40,878 nucleotides of DNA from a virus (lineage: Duplodnaviria > Heunggongvirae > Uroviricota > Caudoviricetes). A model generated the notes under the pieces. It searched no databases, was not told where the DNA came from, and was given only the letters and a program-made list of their open reading frames with translations. Positions within the stretch are counted from its first letter, which is position 1, and every line of letters begins with the position of its first letter. Made by a program: the position numbers and the translations under genes. Where the stretch lies: positions 1 through 40,878 of IMG/VR virus record IMGVR_UViG_2713896799_000014; one strand, given 5' to 3'. Positions 1 through 40,878 of the stretch are shown here, in pieces.

Positions 1-933
1 ATGGACAACGACAAAATTGATCAACACAGCGACGAAATTGAAGTTGAGAGCGAAGAAAAAGAGCGCGGCAAAAAAATAGAAATAGATGAAGACCGACTCC
101 CCTCCCGGGCGATGGCAATTCATGAGCATATCCGCCAGGATGGTGAAAAAGAGCTGGAACGCGACGCAATGGCGCTACTGTGGTCAGCCATTGCGGCGGG
201 TCTGTCGATGGGCGCTTCGTTACTGGCAAAAGGGATATTTCAAGTCGAACTGGAAGGTGTGCCGGGCAGCTTCTTGCTGGAGAATCTCGGTTATACCTTT
301 GGTTTTATTATCGTCATTATGGCCCGCCAGCAATTATTTACCGAAAATACCGTGACTGCGGTACTACCCGTCATGCAAAAACCGACAATGAGCAACGTCG
401 GCTTACTTATACGGTTATGGGGCGTCGTGCTGCTGGGTAATATTCTCGGGACAGGTATTGCGGCGTGGGCATTTGAATATATGCCTATCTTCAATGAAGA
501 AACTCGCGATGCATTTGTCAAAATCGGCATGGATGTGATGAAGAACACCCCCAGCGAGATGTTTGCCAACGCGATCATTTCCGGCTGGCTGATCGCCACT
601 ATGGTTTGGATGTTTCCTGCAGCGGGTGCGGCAAAGATTGTGGTGATTATATTGATGACCTGGCTTATTGCCCTGGGTGACACCACCCATATCGTGGTCG
701 GTTCTGTTGAAATCCTCTATCTGGTGTTTAACGGTACGCTGCACTGGAGCGATTTCATCTGGCCCTTCGCACTACCTACTTTAGCGGGGAACATCTGCGG
801 CGGCACCTTTATCTTCGCGTTAATGAGTCATGCACAGATTCGTAACGACATGAGCAATAAGCGTAAAGCAGAAGCACGCCAAAAAGCAGAACGTGCGGAA
901 AACATTAAGAAAAATTATAAAAACCCGGCATAA
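1..933 (+). CDS. yfdC: Inner membrane protein, formate/nitrite transporter family (YfdC-like); host gene flanking argW
   Basis: 310-aa ORF with hydrophobic segments; matches my recollection of E. coli YfdC, which sits beside argW/intS in K-12. Confidence 0.8.
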   Translation: MDNDKIDQHSDEIEVESEEKERGKKIEIDEDRLPSRAMAIHEHIRQDGEKELERDAMALLWSAIAAGLSMGASLLAKGIFQVELEGVPGSFLLENLGYTFGFIIVIMARQQLFTENTVTAVLPVMQKPTMSNVGLLIRLWGVVLLGNILGTGIAAWAFEYMPIFNEETRDAFVKIGMDVMKNTPSEMFANAIISGWLIATMVWMFPAAGAAKIVVIILMTWLIALGDTTHIVVGSVEILYLVFNGTLHWSDFIWPFALPTLAGNICGGTFIFALMSHAQIRNDMSNKRKAEARQKAERAENIKKNYKNPA

Positions 934-1008: not shown

Positions 1009-1083
1009 GTCCTCTTAGTTAAATGGATATAACGAGCCCCTCCTAAGGGCTAATTGCAGGTTCGATTCCTGCAGGGGACACCA
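1009..1083 (+). tRNA. argW: tRNA-Arg (anticodon CCU)
   Basis: 75-nt cloverleaf read by eye: acceptor GTCCTCT/AGGGGAC, anticodon loop CT-CCT-AA, T-arm GGTTCGATTCC, 3' CCA. Confidence 0.9.
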
Positions 1084-1244
1084 TTTATCAGTTCGCTCCC
1101 ATCCGTACCAGTCCGCAAAATCCCCTGAATATAAAGCCTTCCGTAGATTCACAGTTCGTAATGGTTCGCGTCAGATCGTTGACAGCCGCACTCCATGACG
1201 GGTAAAAAGTGGATAAAATAATTTTACCCACCGGATTTTTACCC

Positions 1245-2402
1245 ATGCTCACCGTTAAGCAGATTGAAGCAGCAAAGCCGAAAGAAAAACCATACCGCCT
1301 TCTCGATGGTAATGGCCTGTACCTTTATGTCCCTGTATCCGGGAAAAAGGTATGGCAGCTTCGCTACAAGATTGACGGTAAGGAGAAAATCATGACCGTC
1401 GGAAAATATCCGCTTATGACTTTGCAGGAGGCCAGGGATAAAGCATGGACTGCGAGGAAAGACATCTCGGTTGGCATCGATCCGGTAAAAGCGAAAAAGG
1501 CTTCGTCTAATAACAATTCCTTTAGTGCGATTTACAAGGAATGGTACGAGCACAAGAAGCAAGTCTGGTCTGTAGGGTATGCGACTGAACTTGCCAAAAT
1601 GTTTGATGACGACATTTTACCCATCATCGGCGGTCTTGAAATTCAGGATATTGAGCCGATGCAACTGCTGGAAGTAATCCGCAGATTTGAAGATCGCGGC
1701 GCAATGGAGCGAGCCAACAAAGCACGCAGAAGATGCGGCGAGGTTTTCCGTTACGCTATTGTCACCGGAAGGGCTAAATATAACCCGGCACCTGACCTTG
1801 CTGACGCCATGAAGGGATACCGCAAGAAGAACTTCCCGTTTCTTCCTGCAGACCAGATCCCGGAATTCAACAAAGCACTGGCAACATTTTCAGGAAGTAT
1901 CGTATCGCTCATTGCCACCAAGGTTTTACGCTACACAGCCCTAAGAACGAAAGAGCTTCGTTCCATGCAATGGAAGAACGTCGATTTTGAAAACAGGATT
2001 ATCACCATCGACGCCAATGTGATGAAGGGACGCAAAATTCATGTGGTTCCTATGTCAGACCAGGTAGTTGAACTTCTCACTACGCTAAGCTCAATCACCA
2101 AACCAGTATCAGAGTTTGTTTTTGCCGGGCGCAACGATAAGAAGAAGCCAATTTGCGAGAACGCTGTACTGCTTGTGATCAAACAAATCGGCTATGAAGG
2201 TCTGGAAAGCGGTCACGGATTCAGGCATGAATTCAGCACGATTATGAACGAGCACGAATGGCCTGCTGATGCTATTGAAGTGCAACTGGCACATGCCAAC
2301 GGCGGATCTGTGCGCGGAATTTACAACCATGCTCAGTATCTCGATAAGCGCAGAGAAATGATGCAGTGGTGGGCGGATTGGATTGATGAAAAGGTGGAGT
2401 GA
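1245..2402 (+). CDS. intS: Tyrosine integrase, P4-type (IntS-like)
   Basis: 385 aa from internal Met MLTVKQIEAAKP; transcribed away from adjacent tRNA; matches recollection of K-12 IntS. Confidence 0.9.
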   Translation: MLTVKQIEAAKPKEKPYRLLDGNGLYLYVPVSGKKVWQLRYKIDGKEKIMTVGKYPLMTLQEARDKAWTARKDISVGIDPVKAKKASSNNNSFSAIYKEWYEHKKQVWSVGYATELAKMFDDDILPIIGGLEIQDIEPMQLLEVIRRFEDRGAMERANKARRRCGEVFRYAIVTGRAKYNPAPDLADAMKGYRKKNFPFLPADQIPEFNKALATFSGSIVSLIATKVLRYTALRTKELRSMQWKNVDFENRIITIDANVMKGRKIHVVPMSDQVVELLTTLSSITKPVSEFVFAGRNDKKKPICENAVLLVIKQIGYEGLESGHGFRHEFSTIMNEHEWPADAIEVQLAHANGGSVRGIYNHAQYLDKRREMMQWWADWIDEKVE

Positions 2403-2544: not shown

Positions 2545-4503
2545 TTAACCTATTTTTGTGTAGGTCCAATTAAAAGTGCCTGTGCCCTGGCTTGTAATGG
2601 TTACAATTCTCCCTGTTGCTGAAAAACTAAGAAATGCTGCTATTTTTAACGCAACAAGAATTAGCTTATCTCCATCATACATTGCCAGTTGTGTAGATGC
2701 GTAATTTTCTCCGCTTCCAGCCCCCCATACGCTAATAATGTAAGTACCTTGCGAATCTGGTATAGAGAAAAGTGTTGTCGGAGTATTTTCAGCCACAGCA
2801 GTAGAGCCTTTACTGGTAGAGAAGCATGATGTTTGCAATCCTTCCTTAGATGTTATTTGTGAATAACCATCTACGATAAGTCCTGTTTTTTTAGGGCAGT
2901 CATACCATGATACATCACCAGTACTTAGCGTACTTAAAACAGGAGTTCCTGTAGTGGTTGCTCTGAACCGGCTATTAAAGACACTTATTTTAGCTGTGTC
3001 TATTGCATGTAACATAATGGGATACCCAGACCCAGTATATGCAACTGTGTTGTTGTCAGATAAATCATCTTCTGATGACTCAATTTTAACATCGCTGCTA
3101 CCTGACGCCCTGATGTAGGAAACTACACCAGCATCACTTGGCGCAACACTTCGCATGCTGTTCTGATGTGCAGTCAGGCCAGAAATGCCACCACTACTAT
3201 TTTCGAAATGGAATAGTGCTGCCTCTCCATAACCATCTGTAGAGATGGTGTTACCCTCCGCATCAAAACCAATAATGTTAAAACTATGTGTGTTAAGAAC
3301 ATGAACGCCAGCCCCACCAAGCGAACCTGCGTTTAACGAAATATTTGATCCATCCATGGCACAGTTAATCATTGTAGCTGCAAAGACAGAACCAAACTGA
3401 TATGGTGATATACATCCAGATGTATAACATCTTTCCATCAGAATGGTAGTGCCAGTTCCTTTTGTAAAACCATTATGGCAGTTTCTGGCCCACACATTCG
3501 TAAGTTTTGTCAAGTATGTGCCAGTCTGATCATTAAAGCATGACCATGCACCATGAACTGTACAGTTTTTAATTTCAGACATTTCCAAGCTTGTTGAATT
3601 TGGAATTGTCGAGTAGAAATTAAATGCAATTTTCCCACCATCATTTTCAGGATTCGTTGGTGTGGTTCCTGGATCATAGAAAATATAAAGACCATCAATA
3701 AAAATCTGAATCATTTTTGTCGATAGGGAATCACCTTGATCTAAAGCAAAGGCTGAAATATTACCAATAATAGACATAAATGATTGCGCTCTATTTATTG
3801 TATCAGTTCCCTCTCCAACAATCCTAACGGAGTTTTTCAGAAAAATAGTTGAATTATAGTAACCAGTTCCCTTTGGAATAAGCACTGTTTTCCCCGTGTT
3901 ACATGCGGACTGAAGCGCAGCATAATCAACAGATTGAGATAGAGATGAAACAAATGGATATACCATCTGAGCGGCTGATAGTGTTGAAAATATCTCGCTT
4001 AAAGGGTGAAGCGTTCCGTCAATTGTAGCGCCAAAATCAATAACACTTATAGCCTGTGAATTTTTAATGTGCTGTGAAATAGAAGTAGCACCAGTGTACG
4101 GTTGTTTAACTGTAACTAATGCATCCCCCATTCCATCAGCATCGCTTTCTAACTGCTGCTTAAACTGATCAGGGTCATACTTCAGCACATTAGGGAAATA
4201 GAACTGCTGCGCACCATACGCATCGTACACAGCCATAGAATGACCTTGCACAGTTACGAACTTGGCAATCTGTCCATTATATACCGGGTAACCAGCAGCG
4301 TTAATGATGATTGGTTGCGATACAGGAACGTGAGAACCGTCTTCATTCTCCACATAAACCTGAATCCGGTTTTCAGGATTTACCGGGTCAGTGTCAATTT
4401 TTCCGATATAAATTTCTCCATTGGCTACGGCTTTAAAAGAACGCGCCATAGTGAAAAGTTGCGAAGGCATCGATACGATCACATTGGCTGTAATGTCTGT
4501 CAT
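2545..4503 (-). CDS. Tailspike protein (P22 gp9-like N-terminal head-binding domain, divergent receptor-binding domain)
   Basis: N-terminus [29 protein letters not shown] matches P22 gp9 head-binding domain; remainder differs from P22 endorhamnosidase. Confidence 0.85.
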
Positions 4504-24337: not shown

Positions 24338-24413
24338 TGGTGCTGGTTAACGGACTTGAACCGCTACCCATTCGCTTACAAGGCGACTGCTCTACCATTA
24401 GAGCTAAACCAGC
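24338..24413 (-). tRNA. Phage-encoded tRNA-Thr (anticodon UGU), hand-folded
   Basis: Minus strand: 7-bp acceptor GCTGGTT/AACCAGC, D-stem GCTC/GAGC, anticodon loop CT-TGT-AA, T-loop TTCAAGT, 3' ACCA. Confidence 0.55.
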
Positions 24414-24418
24414 ATGTT

Positions 24419-24493
24419 TGGCGGGACAGCGTGGACTCGAACCACGATAAGAAGGTTAACAGCCTTCCGTAATGACCTTTATACGACTGACCC
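24419..24493 (-). tRNA. tRNA-like gene, probable tRNA-Asn (anticodon GUU), one acceptor-stem mismatch
   Basis: Minus strand: anticodon stem GAAGG/CCTTC perfect, loop CT-GTT-AA, T-arm CGTGG-TTCGAGT-CCACG, 3' GCCA; acceptor 6 of 7 pairs. Confidence 0.45.
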
Positions 24494-33447: not shown

Positions 33448-33649
33448 GGTAGTCATGCTCAAGAAAGTCAAACGCCGACTTTACAAAGAAGGTAGATATT
33501 CATGCCAATTGCCAAAATGCGACACAGCAAAATGGAGTGTCGACGATTGGTGTAACTGGATAGATAGATACGGAACTTGGTGGGATAAATAACAGGTAAC
33601 TTAAGCGGATTTATTTTCGCAGCAAACCACTTATTTGAGAGGAATTAAT

Positions 33650-34273
33650 ATGTCATCAATTCGCTTAACTACGAGAATGAAAGAGGAAATCGCTCGTAAC
33701 GCTTTAATTAAGTCTGGGGTTTTCACTGAACTTGAAGAAGTAACAAAGTTAAAGAACCAGCTTGCACTTGACGCCAGAGTTATTGCGTTTGGCGGTAAAA
33801 AGAAAACTGAGGAAGTGGATCAGTTATCATCCAAGTTGGTAGCTATAAGTGAAGAACTTGAAAAGATGGGATGTTCATTTTACTCATACGATTTTCGTTC
33901 TACTTCAATTTATCTGACTGTATCTGGAAGAAGGGTTGGATGGCATTCATATGGGAAAGACGGCAACGGCGAAGATATATTGCTTCCTACTCCGACAAAA
34001 GATAAATGCATGTTTGACGCAGAACACAAAATAACAAAAAGGTTTGATGAAATCTGCGCATTGCAACAAAACCTTGAAGCCTTGAAAAAGGATATCGAAT
34101 CAAATGTATGGGCTGCTTTGAACTCAGTCACAACAGTTAAGCGACTTATTGAAGTTTGGCCTGAAAGCAAAGAATTGCTACCAAAAGAAGCAGATAAAGC
34201 AAGTACAGCACTTCCTGCTTTACGGGTAGAAGATTTGAATAAGATGATTGGACTTCCTTCCGAGGCCGCATAG
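33650..34273 (+). CDS. Hypothetical protein, 207 aa; pL-proximal moron
   Basis: ATG with GAGAGGAA RBS; AT-rich; followed by its own terminator; no family recognised. Confidence 0.55.
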   Translation: MSSIRLTTRMKEEIARNALIKSGVFTELEEVTKLKNQLALDARVIAFGGKKKTEEVDQLSSKLVAISEELEKMGCSFYSYDFRSTSIYLTVSGRRVGWHSYGKDGNGEDILLPTPTKDKCMFDAEHKITKRFDEICALQQNLEALKKDIESNVWAALNSVTTVKRLIEVWPESKELLPKEADKASTALPALRVEDLNKMIGLPSEAA

Positions 34274-35371: not shown

Positions 35372-36079
35372 ATGGATTTGAACAAATTCGATGAGCCATT
35401 CAGCCCTGAAGATATCGAATGGCGAATACAGCAAAGCGGTAAAACACGCGATGGCAAGGTGTGGGCTATGGTGCTGGCTTATGTCACGAACAGGGCAATC
35501 ATGAAACGCCTGGACGATGTTTGCGGCAAAGCAGGATGGCGCAATGAATACCGCGATATTCCCAACAACGGAGGCGTTGAATGCGGCATATCAATAAAGA
35601 TTGATTCCGAATGGGTAACCAAATGGGATGCAGCTGAAAACACGCAGGTAGAAGCCGTAAAAGGTGGTCGTTCCGGTGCAATGAAGCGCGCTGCCGTTCA
35701 GTGGGGAATCGGTCGGTATCTGTATAACCTTGAGGAAGGTTTCGCACAAACATCTCTCGACAAAAAGCAGGGATGGCACAGGGCAAAACTCAAGGATGGA
35801 ACAGGATTTTACTGGCTCCCTCCATCGCTGCCGGGCTGGGCAATCCCAGCATCAGATAACAAACCATCACCAGAAAATACCAACCAGAAATCTCCATCGG
35901 TTGACTGCGAACAAATCCTGAAAGACTTCAGCGATTATGCATCAACAGAAACTGACAAGAAAAAACTCATCGAGCGTTATCAGCGTGACTGGCAATTAAT
36001 GGCTGGCAACGAGGAGGCGCAGGCTAAATGCGTTCAGGTAATGAACATCAGAGTTAACGAACTAAAACAGGCGGCATAA
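35372..36079 (+). CDS. Rad52/Sak-family single-strand annealing protein
   Basis: 235 aa with WGIGRYLY motif typical of Rad52-like recombinases; GAGGTGA RBS; immediately precedes ssb. Confidence 0.7.
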   Translation: MDLNKFDEPFSPEDIEWRIQQSGKTRDGKVWAMVLAYVTNRAIMKRLDDVCGKAGWRNEYRDIPNNGGVECGISIKIDSEWVTKWDAAENTQVEAVKGGRSGAMKRAAVQWGIGRYLYNLEEGFAQTSLDKKQGWHRAKLKDGTGFYWLPPSLPGWAIPASDNKPSPENTNQKSPSVDCEQILKDFSDYASTETDKKKLIERYQRDWQLMAGNEEAQAKCVQVMNIRVNELKQAA

Positions 36080-36553
36080 ATGGCAAGCAGAGGCGTAAAT
36101 AAGGTGATCATTATTGGTCGCCTTGGGCATGATCCAGAAATCAGATATTCACCATCAGGAACGGCATTTGCAAACCTTACAGTTGCTACGTCAGAACAAT
36201 GGCGTGATAAGCAAACTGGAGAGCAAAAGGAGCAGACGGAGTGGCACCGCGTGGTAATGAGCGGGAAACTGGCAGAAATTGCCAGCGAATATCTGCGAAA
36301 AGGCTCTGAGGTTTATCTTGAAGGCAAATTGCGGACAAGAAAATGGCAGGATCAAAGCGGACAGGATCGGTTCACTACCGAAGTTATCGTAGGCGTTGGT
36401 GGAACCATGCAAATGCTTGGTGGAAAGCAAGGAAGCAATGAACAGTCTTCACCTCAGCGAAATAACGGCCAGCAACAAAGACAGCAATCTCAGCAGCATG
36501 GGAATCACAGCGAACCACCTATGAACTTCGACGATTCGGATATTCCGTTCTAG
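36080..36553 (+). CDS. ssb: Single-stranded DNA-binding protein SSB
   Basis: OB-fold N-terminus [23 protein letters not shown], Gly/Gln-rich linker, acidic tail ending DDSDIPF. Confidence 0.9.
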
Positions 36554-36562
36554 GAGCTGAAT

Positions 36563-37042
36563 ATGAAAATCTGCTCAAGATGCCATCAATAGAAGGAAGA
36601 AAGGGACTTTCAAATCAGAAGAGCATCCAGAGATGGATTAACTGCCGCTTGCCGGGCTTGCCTGGCTGAATACGACAAAGAACGCGCTGGATTGCCACAT
36701 CGAGTATCAGCAAGGAGAGAATATCAATCATCGGAACGCGGAAGAGAACGGTGTAACGCAGCCAAAAAGCGGTTCATTCAGAGCAACCCATGGAAAAGAA
36801 AAGCCCACATCATTGTGGGTAATTTTTTGCGCGACGGTAAGCTAATCCGACCACCAAAATGTGAGTGCTGCGGATCAGAATGTAAACCACAGGCGCACCA
36901 CTGCGACTACAGCAAACCAACCGATGTGATGTGGCTCTGCAAGTCATGTCATGTCGAGTGGCACAAACATAACAAACCTATCTACCCAGACGAGGAGCCA
37001 GTAACCCTCCCCTTCCCTCGTCACGCTATTCACGCAATTTAA
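36563..37042 (+). pseudogene. HNH-like zinc-finger nuclease gene interrupted by in-frame amber codon at codon 10
   Basis: ATG with AGGAG 7 nt upstream, then MKICSRCHQ, TAG at 36590-36592, same frame open to 37042; C-terminal HHCD...CKSCHVEWH. Confidence 0.45.
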
Positions 37043-37055
37043 TCAGGAGAAAATC

Positions 37056-37352
37056 ATGCCAGCGCCTCTGTATGGTGCGGACGACGCGCGCCGCTGTTCC
37101 GGCAATTCCGTATTGGAGGTGCTGGAAAATATCAAAAACAATTTCGATGCATTTCTTACTCTGCCACCAGAAACAAAAGCGGAACGGATGTACCGACGCG
37201 ATATACAACTCGCGCTAAAACAGGAGAAGGACCGAACAAACGAAACAGCAATGAGACCGTTGCGAAAAGCGACAATAGACAAATTCCCTGAATATATCGA
37301 CCCACGCCTGCGTAATTACCGCTCACGCTATGGCGCTATCAGTAATGACTGA
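37056..37352 (+). CDS. Hypothetical protein, 98 aa
   Basis: ORF with CAGGAGAAAA RBS in the early-left operon. Confidence 0.5.
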
Positions 37353-37362
37353 GGAATTTACC

Positions 37363-37530
37363 ATGAGAGGACTTGCATACAATCCCGGCATTCTTCCGGC
37401 AGAAATGATTATTCGCCAACGCGTAAAGACAATGCCATCGAGAGAGGAATCACTTAAGCGAAACTCGTTTCCATCAGTGAATCAGAACAAATATCTGAAT
37501 GCGATGTGGCGTAAAGGAGGCAACCAGTGA
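37363..37530 (+). CDS. Small hypothetical protein
   Basis: 55-aa ORF from MRGLAYNPG with GAGGAA RBS; stop overlaps next GTG start. Confidence 0.4.
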
Positions 37531-38171
37531 GCAACCGTTTTTACATGATGTGTTTGCGTGAAACTGTGGGTAATAACGCCTCATTCCATTGCCATAACGG
37601 CAATGGTTACAGTTCTGATATCGATCGCGCTCATGTTTACACGCTGGAAGAAGCCCTAAAAGCCTGGAATTGTGGGCGAGATATCGATCAGCCTGTTTGT
37701 GCCGATAGTGTGGATGCAATGGCTGTGTGGCACGTTGATTGCCAGTACATCCCTACAGAAAGCCTGATTGAGTCAGATTGCACTGCGTATGTAGCCTACA
37801 AAAAAGGTAGCTGGAACGGCAACGATGTTTACTGGCTTCAACACGGTGGATTGCCAACAGATGACTTCAGTAAAGCGACCATCTTTAGCGTCGCCAACAA
37901 AAACGAACCAGGAATAGTTTGGTTGCCATTTTCCATCGCCGATGCAGCAAAGCGCCGGACGTTCAATATCAATAACTTTAACCGCAGAACAATGGTTCAG
38001 GGCGCAGGTTTGGTCATGCCTGACTGGTTGAAAGAGCAGAACAGAAGAAAGAAGTCGCGAAGCGGGAAGGTGCGTTGGAATTGTCCGCATTGCGGAAAAA
38101 TCACCTGGCAGTACAGCCCATATGATTTTGAAGGCTGTAGTGATTACAACTGTGAAGGATGGCGAGAATGA
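37527..38171 (+). CDS. Hypothetical Cys-rich protein, 214 aa
   Basis: GTG start after AAAGGAGG; several Cys/His clusters incl. C-terminal CPHCG...CEGW. Confidence 0.55.
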
Positions 38172-38635
38172 CAATTGACTATCAGGCACTGCGTGAGGCG
38201 GCAGAACGTGCAACTCCAGCAATGGAACGCCTGTTAATGTTGCCAGTTGATGATGATTTGTTAAGTGAACAGGAGCTTAAAGATTACGGTGTGGATATTG
38301 ATGCGCTCAACGCCTTCAAATTTCTGACCGGACCAGAAACCGTGCTGGCGCTGCTGGATGAACGGGAAAGAAACCAGCAATACATCAAACGCCGCGACCA
38401 GGAGAACGAGGATATTGCGCTAACGGTAGGGAAACTGCGTGTTGAGCTGGAAGCCGCAGAGAAGCGGATTGCTGACATGGAGGCGCGGGAGGTTGTACTG
38501 CCGCGTGCGCACGATGTTCACCCATTAGGGCCGCAGTCGGCGAAAATTTTTTGTGAGTTTCACCGGAGTATCGTGAACAGATGCGCCGATGAGATTCGCA
38601 AGGTTGGCGTCAAAGTCAGCATCAAGGGGAATTAG
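38168..38635 (+). CDS. Ead/Ea22-like protein
   Basis: ATG overlaps upstream stop (ATGA); coiled-coil-rich sequence resembling prophage Ead/Ea22-family proteins. Confidence 0.5.
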   Translation: MTIDYQALREAAERATPAMERLLMLPVDDDLLSEQELKDYGVDIDALNAFKFLTGPETVLALLDERERNQQYIKRRDQENEDIALTVGKLRVELEAAEKRIADMEAREVVLPRAHDVHPLGPQSAKIFCEFHRSIVNRCADEIRKVGVKVSIKGN

Positions 38636-38639
38636 GGAT

Positions 38640-39422
38640 ATGGCTGAACTAACCAAAGAATGGCTGAAGCAAACTATCGCTGAATACGAAGCCAATCGTG
38701 ATGAATTACCGTTTGGACTGGATACCAACAGTGCCATTGAGCTTCAGGCGTTCAAGTTGGCGCTGGCATCGCTGGAAGCAGAACCAGTTGCTTATATTTT
38801 CAAACATCCGGCTGGAAAATTATTCTGGGCTTTAACGGATGAAAGCAATAAAGAGCAATCGGACGTTATTCCTGTTTATGCCGCCCCTCCAGTGCCAGTA
38901 GTACCTGAAGAAAAACCAATGCCTAACCCTCTTAAAATGTACGCGGTTGATGCTGTTGCCGCTATTGCAGAGGTGAGAGGCTGGAACGCCTGCCGCGCCG
39001 CCATGCTTCAGGGTAGCCAACCTGTAAGCCAAACTTACAACTTGCCAGAATTAATCGAAGGCATGGAAGTTTCCATTGATGTAAGCACTTGTGATGCTGA
39101 TTTAGGTAATCGCTATTTCGGCACCGTCACCGAGGCGTTAGAACTTGATACAGCCAAGAATGGTTACATCCTCCTGGTTCAGGACGCAGAGCCAAACTTC
39201 GATGTAAATGGCAACTCTCCGGGAACTCCGGATAGTTGGATTCCGCTAAGCGAAAGGATGCCGGAACCTTATGAATACGTTCTTGTAACTGATGGTTTTG
39301 ATGGCTGTGAGGTTATGCGTGTTAATACAGATGGCTACTGGGGGCCAGCAAAGAGTTTATATCCAGGTAGTATTACCCACTGGATGCCACTGCCAGCAGC
39401 ACCGCAGCAGGAGGTGAAGTGA
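38640..39422 (+). CDS. DUF551-like prophage protein
   Basis: C-terminal WIPLSERMPE...YVLVTDG...HWMPLP resembles the DUF551 module common in enterobacterial prophages. Confidence 0.5.
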   Translation: MAELTKEWLKQTIAEYEANRDELPFGLDTNSAIELQAFKLALASLEAEPVAYIFKHPAGKLFWALTDESNKEQSDVIPVYAAPPVPVVPEEKPMPNPLKMYAVDAVAAIAEVRGWNACRAAMLQGSQPVSQTYNLPELIEGMEVSIDVSTCDADLGNRYFGTVTEALELDTAKNGYILLVQDAEPNFDVNGNSPGTPDSWIPLSERMPEPYEYVLVTDGFDGCEVMRVNTDGYWGPAKSLYPGSITHWMPLPAAPQQEVK

Positions 39423-39424
39423 GT

Positions 39425-39610
39425 ATGAGTGCATCACTAATAACCGCCTTCAATCAAAGTGCAAATCCAAGCAATGAGCAGGTTGTTGTGTTCGGCTGGA
39501 TTGCTGAGTATTTCGAAAGCATTTTCGACGATGAATCCGCTAGGTATTGCAGGAATATTTCTGAATCACTCAAAAATCAGGTTTCTGCTCAACAGGAGGT
39601 GAAGTCGTGA
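39425..39610 (+). CDS. Small hypothetical protein
   Basis: ORF starting just after a conserved CAGGAGGTGAAGTGA junction. Confidence 0.45.
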   Translation: MSASLITAFNQSANPSNEQVVVFGWIAEYFESIFDDESARYCRNISESLKNQVSAQQEVKS

Positions 39611-39819
39611 GCAAGCACATCATCAAATATGACTATCGAGAGGGAGTTAAACTCCCTAAGCACGAGATTGAGACATGGTGCGGTCATCGGCCAGGGTCAT
39701 TCGAATGGCTTTTTCAGGATGCTCAGCATGCGCTATTGAGCATTGAGCAGGGAACGCTGCTTGTTCCTTGCAAGAATTGTCTGGCAGCAATCATCAAAAC
39801 GGCGCAGGAGGTGAAGTGA
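39607..39819 (+). CDS. Small hypothetical protein
   Basis: GTG start within the second junction motif; 70 aa. Confidence 0.45.
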   Translation: MSKHIIKYDYREGVKLPKHEIETWCGHRPGSFEWLFQDAQHALLSIEQGTLLVPCKNCLAAIIKTAQEVK

Positions 39820-40103
39820 TGGACCCCTTCGCGAAATATACGATTATTGACTGGATAGCCTTCCTTCAGGTTTTGCTCATCTGGTTTTATATGGCTTACA
39901 GGAGTGGACAGTGGATTGTCAGTGTAGCCTGTAGCAAGGGATGGCGTTGGTGGAACCGAAAGAATAAAAAAGCACTGGCATTGGATTCGTTTTACGAAGC
40001 ATTCAATCTTAACAGTCTTCGGCCTGGTTCTGTCGTTGTAGTCACCACTCAAAGCGGCATGACGATACAAATTCACAAGCCAAAGGAGGAAGGTCGTGGC
40101 TAA
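39819..40103 (+). CDS. Small hydrophobic protein
   Basis: 94 aa from MDPFAKYTIIDWIAFLQVLLIWFYMAY (one TM helix); ATG within the third junction motif. Confidence 0.45.
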   Translation: MDPFAKYTIIDWIAFLQVLLIWFYMAYRSGQWIVSVACSKGWRWWNRKNKKALALDSFYEAFNLNSLRPGSVVVVTTQSGMTIQIHKPKEEGRG

Positions 40104-40380
40104 CCTGCAACTTGCCGTCAAAGGTGAATACTTCGATGCCATGATTCGCGGGGAGAAAACGGAAGAGTATCGCCTGTGCAATGACTACTGGAATAAGCGA
40201 ATTATGTTCCGGGAATATGACCGTCTGATTATCACAAAGGGATATCCGAAGCGCGACGATTCCAGCCGTAGAATTGACGTCCCGTATGACGGGTATGAAA
40301 TCAAGACAATCACACATCCGCACTTCGGCGATAAACCGGTAAAGGTGTTCGCGATAAAGGTAAATATCGGCACTGAATAA
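40096..40380 (+). CDS. Hypothetical protein, 94 aa
   Basis: GTG start after AAAGGAGGAAGG; followed by tandem terminators. Confidence 0.5.
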   Translation: MANLQLAVKGEYFDAMIRGEKTEEYRLCNDYWNKRIMFREYDRLIITKGYPKRDDSSRRIDVPYDGYEIKTITHPHFGDKPVKVFAIKVNIGTE

Positions 40381-40384
40381 CAAT

Positions 40385-40439
40385 CCTCGCACTCGCGGGG
40401 ATTTCTTTTATCTGAACTCGCTACGGCGAGTTTTGTTTT
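40385..40439 (+). terminator. Two tandem rho-independent terminators
   Basis: CCTCGC-ACTC-GCGGGG + ATTTCTTTT and ACTCGC-TACG-GCGAGT + TTTGTTTT. Confidence 0.6.
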
Positions 40440-40452
40440 ATGGAGATGATAA

Positions 40453-40620
40453 ATGCACTTCCGAGTCACAGGTGAATGGAATGGAGAACCATTCAACAGA
40501 GTTATCGAAGCAGAGGACATCAACGACTGCTATAACCACTGGATGATATGGGCGCAGATAGCACATGCAGACGTAACCAATATTCGAATTGAAGAACTGA
40601 AAGAACACAAAAACGCCTGA
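40453..40620 (+). CDS. Small hypothetical protein, 55 aa
   Basis: ATG with GGAGA RBS; ORF below track cut-off; weak hairpin plus T-run at its 3' end. Confidence 0.35.
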   Translation: MHFRVTGEWNGEPFNRVIEAEDINDCYNHWMIWAQIAHADVTNIRIEELKEHKNA

Positions 40621-40677
40621 TGGCGGTTTTTTATTGCCTGATTTGCAGGTTCGATTCCCTATTCGGAGATAGCACTC

Positions 40678-40878
40678 ATGCAACACGAACTACAACCTGA
40701 TTCACTGGTTGATTTGAAATTCATCATGGCCGATACTGGCTTCGGTAAGACCTTCATCTACGACCGGATTAAGTCCGGCGACCTGCCTAAAGCCAAAGTT
40801 ATCCACGGACGAGCAAGATGGTTATATCGTGACCATTGTGAATTCAAAAATAAGCTCTTAAGCCGCGCCAATGGGTAA
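40678..40878 (+). CDS. torI: Excisionase / recombination directionality factor, AlpA family (TorI-like)
   Basis: 66 aa MQHELQPDSLVDLKFIMADTGFGKTFIYDRIKSGDLPKAKVIHGRARWLYR; matches my recollection of E. coli TorI, the KplE1 excisionase. Confidence 0.85.
   Translation: MQHELQPDSLVDLKFIMADTGFGKTFIYDRIKSGDLPKAKVIHGRARWLYRDHCEFKNKLLSRANG

Follow-up and report, generated by a model that had tools for sequence, protein, structure and literature searches.

The stretch of DNA analysed here, called the window below, is the 40,878-nucleotide (nt) record IMGVR_UViG_2713896799_000014 of IMG/VR, from a virus of the Caudoviricetes. At three consecutive gene boundaries it carries a short sequence that closes one gene and provides the ribosome site of the next. 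We consider it probable (roughly 0.65) that the lambdoid and P22-like prophages of enterobacteria use this motif in their early-left ea region as a portable linker between genes, which serves both as a ribosome site and as a short homology for cassette exchange. A pattern search of the whole window located exact copies of CAGGAGGTGAAGTGA at 39408-39422 and 39805-39819 and the related CAGGAGGTGAAGTCG at 39593-39607. With up to two mismatches allowed there were three matches where 0.07 were expected, and no shuffle out of 100 reached that number, which bears out an earlier note, made from the sequence alone, that a junction sequence is repeated at three consecutive boundaries. A repeat finder recovered the 16-mer family GCAGGAGGTGAAGTGA with spacings of 185 and 212 nt, and GGAGGTGA occurs in the window at the three junctions only, being used by no other gene start. 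The copies join a DUF551 gene, a 63-amino-acid (aa) gene, a 70-aa gene and a DUF4752 gene in succession, at junctions that we number J1, J2 and J3 (Table 1).

The core of the motif has the architecture AGGAGGTGA-AG-TGA(TG), in which the last four upstream codons (Q-E-V-K) and the stop are combined with a ribosome-binding sequence and a stop/start overlap. The first part, AGGAGGTGA, is a 9-nt perfect complement of the 3′ end of 16S rRNA, that is, a Shine-Dalgarno (SD) sequence. The distance from GGAGG to the start is 7 nt at J2 and J3 and 10 nt at J1, where the likely ATG at 39425 begins 2 nt past the stop of the DUF551 gene; this start is the most likely one, given that residue 3 of the open reading frame (ORF) counted from the GTG is where the PHROG profile begins. 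The earlier note had the motif supply the end of the upstream gene (its last codons and its stop) together with the SD and start codon of the next, and this stands except for the start codon, which is held or touched by the motif at J2 and J3 but lies beyond it at J1. Two of its details need correction. The copy at 39593-39610, described as a one-base variant, reads CAGGAGGTGAAGT-CG-TGA (CAGGAGGTGAAGTcgTGA), i.e., the shared 13-nt core followed by an extra codon, TCG, before the TGA. Nor is QQEVK-stop encoded three times, since the tails are ...PQQEVK-stop at J1, ...AQQEVKS-stop at J2 and ...TAQEVK-stop at J3.

Because the core places an SD 7 nt before the next start and overlaps stop and start, it would give the downstream gene its ribosome-binding site, and ribosomes may move straight on from each small gene to its neighbour. 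The geometry fits termination-reinitiation, with an overlap or a gap of at most 2 nt between stop and start and the SD inside the upstream ORF, and translation may be coupled at these junctions. However, independent initiation is equally possible because the 9-nt SD is perfect and is not buried in RNA structure: 90-nt folds around J1 to J3 and a degenerate relative, J4, were no more stable than their shuffles (z from -0.44 to +0.36), leaving the SD without stable pairing. The evidence supports a strong ribosome site that permits coupling and makes it plausible. The stronger wording of the earlier note, that the repeats enforce coupling, goes too far for a perfect SD free of structure (z near 0). 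Frameshifting stimulated by the SD, of the prfB/dnaX kind, was rejected on inspection, as no slippery sequence precedes the stop and entry into the downstream frame would require a -1 shift on G-GTG-AAG-T.

The same sequence links many different genes in related phages. Among 80 viral contigs anchored on DUF4752, all 73 of 73 motif copies lie on the coding strand, and, the window included, the motif precedes DUF4752 in 79 junction contexts with 19 left-flank clusters. Contigs anchored on the 70-aa gene (n = 49) carry the motif at both ends in 36 of the 36 loci with at least 79% amino-acid identity, and across those 36 loci the gene has about 12 left and about 9 right neighbours; 70-aa homologues at 46-60% identity have lost it. 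When 219 unique junction contexts are pooled, 40 left and 23 right flank clusters are linked into a single network with 67 combinations, where the 3′ end of the 70-aa gene has 10 partners, the start of DUF4752 18 and the start of the 70-aa gene 12. In contrast, for the non-canonical J4, which follows DUF4752, those 80 DUF4752-anchored contigs show only 2 right partners. The downstream cargo is diverse and includes an Rv2179c-like exoribonuclease, an HNH/LexA-DBD (DNA-binding domain) protein, NinX-like proteins and many ORFans. The search of related prophages for the same junction around different cassettes, suggested in the earlier note, gave these 67 left/right combinations. As to absence at equivalent junctions, which was to count against the idea, only distant relatives (P22, HK620, lambda and the 70-aa homologues at 46-60% identity) are without the motif, while close relatives keep it.

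Homology to other genomes breaks at the edge of the motif. The region is highly mosaic: no phage record covers 80% of 38589-40700, and phage homology blocks begin at window positions 39391-39394 or 39797-39803, i.e., at J1 and J3. For the 67 loci that have DUF4752 in common with the window and lack its left gene, the ungapped match stops 1-3 nt left of the core. A search of 5426 complete E. coli genomes with 39250-39950 gave matches in 571, of which just 20 carry the arrangement in full; in an even sample of 12 matches, 10 start at 39797-39804. In six loci the 70-aa gene is joined straight to the ASCH-like gene, the right partner of J4, via a hybrid junction.

The clearest single case is a precise insertion or deletion of one gene. 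Two contigs (L184 and L196) differ solely by the 212-bp 70-aa cassette, which fits exactly into the interval between two motif copies; their flanks are about 99% identical, over 390 nt or more to the left and 300 nt or more to the right, and single-nucleotide polymorphisms form a small cluster within 12 nt left of the motif. Three natural arrangements coexist: DUF551 and DUF4752 joined by one motif, the same pair with the 70-aa cassette between two motifs, and the pair with both the 63-aa and 70-aa cassettes and three motifs, as in this window, HF4s and mEp213/mEp043. The DUF551 and DUF4752 genes are directly adjacent in most relatives, whereas two cassettes intervene here. A relaxed motif-to-motif listing of cassettes was noisy and was relied on for the 63-aa, the 70-aa and two further cassettes only.

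Many copies also have a conserved upstream arm, with the consensus GCAGCAGCACCGCAG-CAGGAGGTGAAG-TGATG, which encodes ...AAAPQQEVK-stop; the full linker consensus of about 32 nt is GCAGCAGCACCGCAGCAGGAGGTGAAGTGATG. The arm GCAGCAGCACCGCAG is 60-80% conserved across 21 left contexts other than DUF551. In a motif-anchored scan of viral contigs, many matches were unrelated strong ribosome sites, but among the matches listed the long linker ends unrelated proteins and stands before at least 16 different downstream families. Since the same sequence occurs at many junctions of many co-resident or co-infecting prophages, often with the 15-nt arm (about 30 nt in total), it could also provide short homology. 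The long form reaches the cited minimum for Red-beta, whose minimal efficient pairing segment is 23-27 bp, the figure for RecA pairing being 31-34 bp (PMC3945230). Homologous or microhomology-guided recombination at the motif would insert, delete or swap single-gene cassettes while leaving reading frames and translation signals undisturbed. The prophage carries genes for a Rad52-family single-strand annealing protein (SSAP), SSB and Abc2. The SSAP and SSB are putative enzymes able to recombine short or diverged homologies, and the phage Rad52-type protein and/or host RecA would be the likely agents. The suggestion in the earlier note that the repeats are homology patches for cassette exchange is well supported by this comparison of sequences (many gene pairs, breakpoints at the motif edge, a one-cassette insertion or deletion), although the support is correlative and the core of 13-16 nt is short. 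That recombination is targeted to the motif is our inference from the same comparison.

The most serious alternative is that each junction reached the best coupled form independently, joints being illegitimate and filtered by selection to gene borders (the Hendrix model), so that the shared sequence plays no part in recombination. We regard this as unlikely for the joints, though it could be true of the origin of the core, and several results speak for it and so weigh against a linker that guides exchange. A scan for the 18-mer C[AC]GCAGGAGGTGAAGTGA in 185,579 species, each represented by one genome, gave 60 matches against a rough chance estimate of about 35. Seven are from Enterobacteriaceae (Kosakonia, Citrobacter, Klebsiella twice, Raoultella, Enterobacter and Scandinavium), six of them at ORF-to-ORF junctions, five of these with phage-type arms. 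However, 14 of the 53 others are also genuine overlapping junctions (TGATG, both ORFs of at least 40 codons), in species from Actinomycetota, Myxococcota, Armatimonadota and others, and the identical 20-mer C[AC]GCAGGAGGTGAAGTGATG is thus found at overlapping junctions in at least 14 unrelated non-enterobacterial species (including L282, L287 and L301). Because the same junction appears in unrelated phyla, the core recurs as an optimal coupled junction, one that selection is able to produce anew. Only about 3 of its 15 positions are unexplained by SD pairing or the stop/start overlap. In the 70-aa family the conservation at third-codon positions is only modestly higher in the motif than in the gene body (means of 0.87 and 0.79), and the strongly constrained, invariant part is GGAGG. 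Within the window only J1 has the arm, and the core that J2 and J3 share, at 13-16 nt, lies under the published minimal pairing lengths. Mosaic breakpoints also occur inside genes, e.g., in DUF551 at about 39241. No canonical copy was found in the ea regions of P22, HK620 or lambda, which are just as mosaic; in HK022 a single variant copy, CAGGAGGTTAACCGTGGCTAA, joins DUF551 and the ASCH-like gene. Separately, three Actinomycetota contigs with the 20-mer junction share ...GACCCGAAGATG upstream.

On the other hand, convergence has difficulty with dozens of recent joints, with flanks 95-99% identical, that have the same sequence in the same phase, as each would need to have evolved independently. 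It does not easily explain the 15-nt arm, which SD selection does not account for and which is nevertheless common to unrelated left genes, nor why GGAGGTGA is found at no other gene start in the window, nor why the non-canonical J4 has far fewer partners, and the precise cassette insertion or deletion is hard to fit. We therefore prefer the portable linker, with a core that may have arisen by convergence.

The remaining explanations are much weaker. That the repeat is a by-product of a C-terminal peptide, ...(A)APQQEVK, acting as a degradation or interaction tag would agree with the many unrelated ea-region proteins that end in ...AAPQQEVK or ...PEPPQEVK, but it is very improbable. The common variants (QEMK, QEVN, QEAK, QEVKS, QEVNRG) alter the peptide yet keep GGAG(G/A) and the phase, so the constraint appears to be on nucleotides and not on the tail, and wherever the tail occurs a downstream start accompanies it at a constant distance. 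Equally hard to sustain is a cis-regulatory RNA or protein-binding site, whether for the ASCH-like protein, as a structured element or as a cassette site like integron attC or the PeSLs of T4. A repeated, oriented motif within one operon, with a gene for a putative RNA-binding ASCH-like protein immediately downstream, would suit such a site, but there is no RNA structure beyond shuffled controls, no inverted repeat at the cassette ends, no promoter or terminator at the junctions and no dedicated recombinase gene beside the cassettes, and the motif is present where the ASCH-like gene is absent. An integron- or transposon-like site was rejected since the repeat finder gave no inverted repeats at cassette ends, the same direct repeat flanks different cassettes and the integrase at 1209-2402 is the tRNA-site enzyme of the prophage. 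Repeats of the PeSL kind, with promoter and terminator, were rejected since 37000-40878 has no promoter-like site and the junctions no hairpin. Least likely of all is a local origin, in which one junction or gene was duplicated in tandem and the copies then diverged, so that the cassettes would be paralogues or de novo genes; although the copies are consecutive, co-oriented and 185 and 212 nt apart, it was rejected because the 63-aa and 70-aa proteins give no BLASTP alignment, belong to different PHROG families and each occur alone with other neighbours in other phages.

Among known systems, the closest are the short conserved boundary sequences between lambdoid modules, which have been proposed as a focus of homologous recombination (Susskind & Botstein 1978; Clark et al. 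2001; summarised in PMC3233612, PMC2327257). Like them, the motif is short, conserved among otherwise dissimilar genomes, located at borders and coincident with mosaic joints; its conserved core stands amid unrelated flanks (67 combinations, and the 15-nt arm on unrelated left genes) and homology breakpoints coincide with it. It differs in working at the level of single genes instead of functional modules and in lying inside coding sequence, where it doubles as ribosome-binding site and stop/start overlap. The HK620 study of Clark et al. (2001, J Mol Biol 311:657) reportedly describes seven boundary sequences, and the motif is unlikely to be one of them because HK620 is without it. T4-type PeSL cassettes have a promoter and a terminator stem-loop as transcription signals (Arbiol et al. 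2010 PMC2839356; Comeau et al. 2014 PMC4122927). Like the motif they are repeated, oriented expression signals flanking small non-essential ORFs in plastic regions, where recombination between copies inserts, deletes or replaces genes, but the motif has neither promoter nor stem-loop, is a translational signal and is much shorter.

Start-Associated Sequences (SAS) of Cluster K mycobacteriophages are 13-bp asymmetric repeats in one orientation, 3-7 bp before the starts of non-structural genes, with the consensus GGGATAGGAGCCC (Pope et al. 2011 PMC3203893). They too have an SD core inside, are sometimes overlapped by the upstream stop and are linked to genes of different families. The sequence (GGGATAGGAGCCC) and host clade are different, and only position and SD content are alike; SAS include conserved positions that have no pairing partner in 16S rRNA, an extended inverted repeat is common among them, and no cassette-exchange role has been proposed for them. 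The motif is thus a member of neither the PeSLs nor the SAS, because their defining features were tested for and not found. Ordinary coupled operon junctions (TGATG, ATGA or GTGA with the SD in the upstream gene) have identical geometry, and the same 20-mer occurs in unrelated bacteria; what sets the motif apart is one exact sequence reused at consecutive junctions and for many gene pairs, with an extra conserved arm of about 15 nt. No paper with the exact motif string was found in the searchable literature. The motif is a clear example, though not one that is new in kind, of short linkers shaping mosaic phage genomes.

Table 1. The junctions, the genes around them and other features of the prophage (positions are those of the window).
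Feature	Position	Strand	Remarks
J1, full-length linker	39393..39427	+	upstream arm CCAGCAGCACCGCAG (1 mismatch to family consensus); core CAGGAGGTGAAGTGA 39408-39422; stop TGA 39420-39422; likely ATG 39425
J2	39593..39610	+	GTG start of 70-aa gene 39607 overlaps TGA of 63-aa gene 39608-39610 (GTGA)
J3	39805..39821	+	core CAGGAGGTGAAGTGA; TGA of 70-aa gene 39817-39819 overlaps ATG of DUF4752 39819-39821 (TGATG)
J4, degenerate relative AAAGGAGGAAGGTCGTGGCTAA	40082..40103	+	joins DUF4752 to ASCH-like gene; GTG 40096 inside last DUF4752 codons (stop 40101-40103)
DUF551-domain gene (EaA-like)	38640..39422	+	left partner of J1; ATG 38640 chosen from profile alignments; itself mosaic
63-aa ORFan cassette (61 aa from ATG), phrog_23654	39425..39610	+	bounded by J1 and J2
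70-aa ORFan cassette, phrog_4090	39607..39819	+	bounded by J2 and J3
DUF4752 gene	39819..40103	+	right partner of J3
94-aa ASCH-like gene, phrog_625	40096..40380	+	homologues annotated as ASCH-domain; closes tightly packed run
Two tandem terminator-like hairpins	40382..40433	+	end of gene run
Ead/Ea22 gene	38159-38635		5′ of DUF551 gene
Rad52-family single-strand annealing protein	35372-36079	+	
SSB	36080-36553	+	same operon as motif
Host formate/nitrite-transporter-family gene	1-933		left end
tRNA-Arg(CCT), argW	1009-1083		left end
IntS-like integrase	1209-2402		tRNA-site integrase of the prophage
TorI-like excisionase	within 40678-40878		right end

The prophage in the window is P22-like, of the HK620 type, and sits in E. 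coli at argW, the tRNA-Arg(CCT) gene. The HK620-like layout, with int at one end and xis at the other, places the attachment site between int and xis, an arrangement that differs from those of lambda and P22. On the + strand of the early-left operon, the motif is found 3′ of the genes for the annealing protein, SSB and Abc2, in the accessory ea or exo-xis region. No promoter-like site was found in 37000-40878, so the gene run has no internal promoter, and terminators come only after 40380. A Pfam search of the 94-aa phrog_625 protein gave no match; in other phages its gene is preceded by CAGGAGGTTAACCGTGGCTAA or by the canonical core.

The DUF551 gene shows a mosaic structure of its own. Among 512 matching E. 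coli genomes, some with the match on plasmids, most of 45 evenly sampled matches cover only the central part of the gene, 39000-39241, and end at about 39241, just 5′ of the DUF551 domain. In other phages, a segment encoding CRAAML (about 38990-39010 in the window) is followed at once by the ...AAAPQQEVK-stop linker, a hint that linkers also bring about domain fusions in frame.

Two more conserved junction families are present in the same operon and are common to HK620, P22, HK022 and lambda. The second family (about 37510-37535) has the end ...RKGGNQ-stop with a GTGA overlap (CGTAAAGGAGGCAACCAGTGAGCAAC); it is near-identical in HK620 (hkaH/hkaG) and related in P22 (eaE/orf45) and HF4s (the end of EaE), with different neighbour genes. 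The third (about 38612-38642) is an Ead/Ea22-type C-terminus, ...SIKGN-stop, of the form ...IKG(N/E)-stop, with a start 4 nt later, and a related ...GI(R/K)(I/V)KGE-stop ends lambda Ea22, HK022 gp37, HK620 HkaG and P22 EaD. Elsewhere in the window, a hairpin with a T-run at about 40607-40635 follows a 55-aa gene homologous to the unnamed lambdap35 of lambda and to HK022 gp33; the gene at 33635-34273, near the start of the early-left operon, encodes an Nmad5-domain protein (nucleotide modification associated domain 5, E = 1.4e-70); and adjacent phage-borne genes for tRNA-Thr(TGT) and tRNA-Asn(GTT) lie at 24338-24493 on the - strand.

Whether phage mosaicism results from recombination targeted to linkers or from random illegitimate joining followed by selection has been debated since 1978, and clear linker examples are few. 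The motif provides a compact, abundant and tractable case, with 13-32 nt, dozens of natural partner combinations, precise single-gene insertions and deletions and a Rad52-type recombinase in the operon. It also matters for annotation, as starts lying inside the motif get missed. In phage HF4s (MT833387, L263 3219-3441), the deposited 70-aa gene is a 37-aa fragment (3328-3441) and the GTG in a motif of the J2 type was missed.

A bolder proposal, which we put forward tentatively and think rather unlikely, is that the linker of about 30 nt, ...AAAPQQEVK-stop-start, is a selected adaptor that makes the exo-xis/ea region of Enterobacteriaceae prophages a cassette array for homologous recombination served by phage SSAPs. 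If so, the array would be a functional analogue of the integron without a site-specific recombinase, into which any small ORF bearing the linker could be plugged in frame with its translation signals supplied, and mini-circles of cassettes could be released through the direct repeats, as happens with T4 PeSLs. The exo-xis/ea region reportedly influences the lysis-lysogeny decision in lambda and Shiga-toxin phages (PMC10834534), and rapid shuffling of its cassettes may therefore change prophage behaviour.

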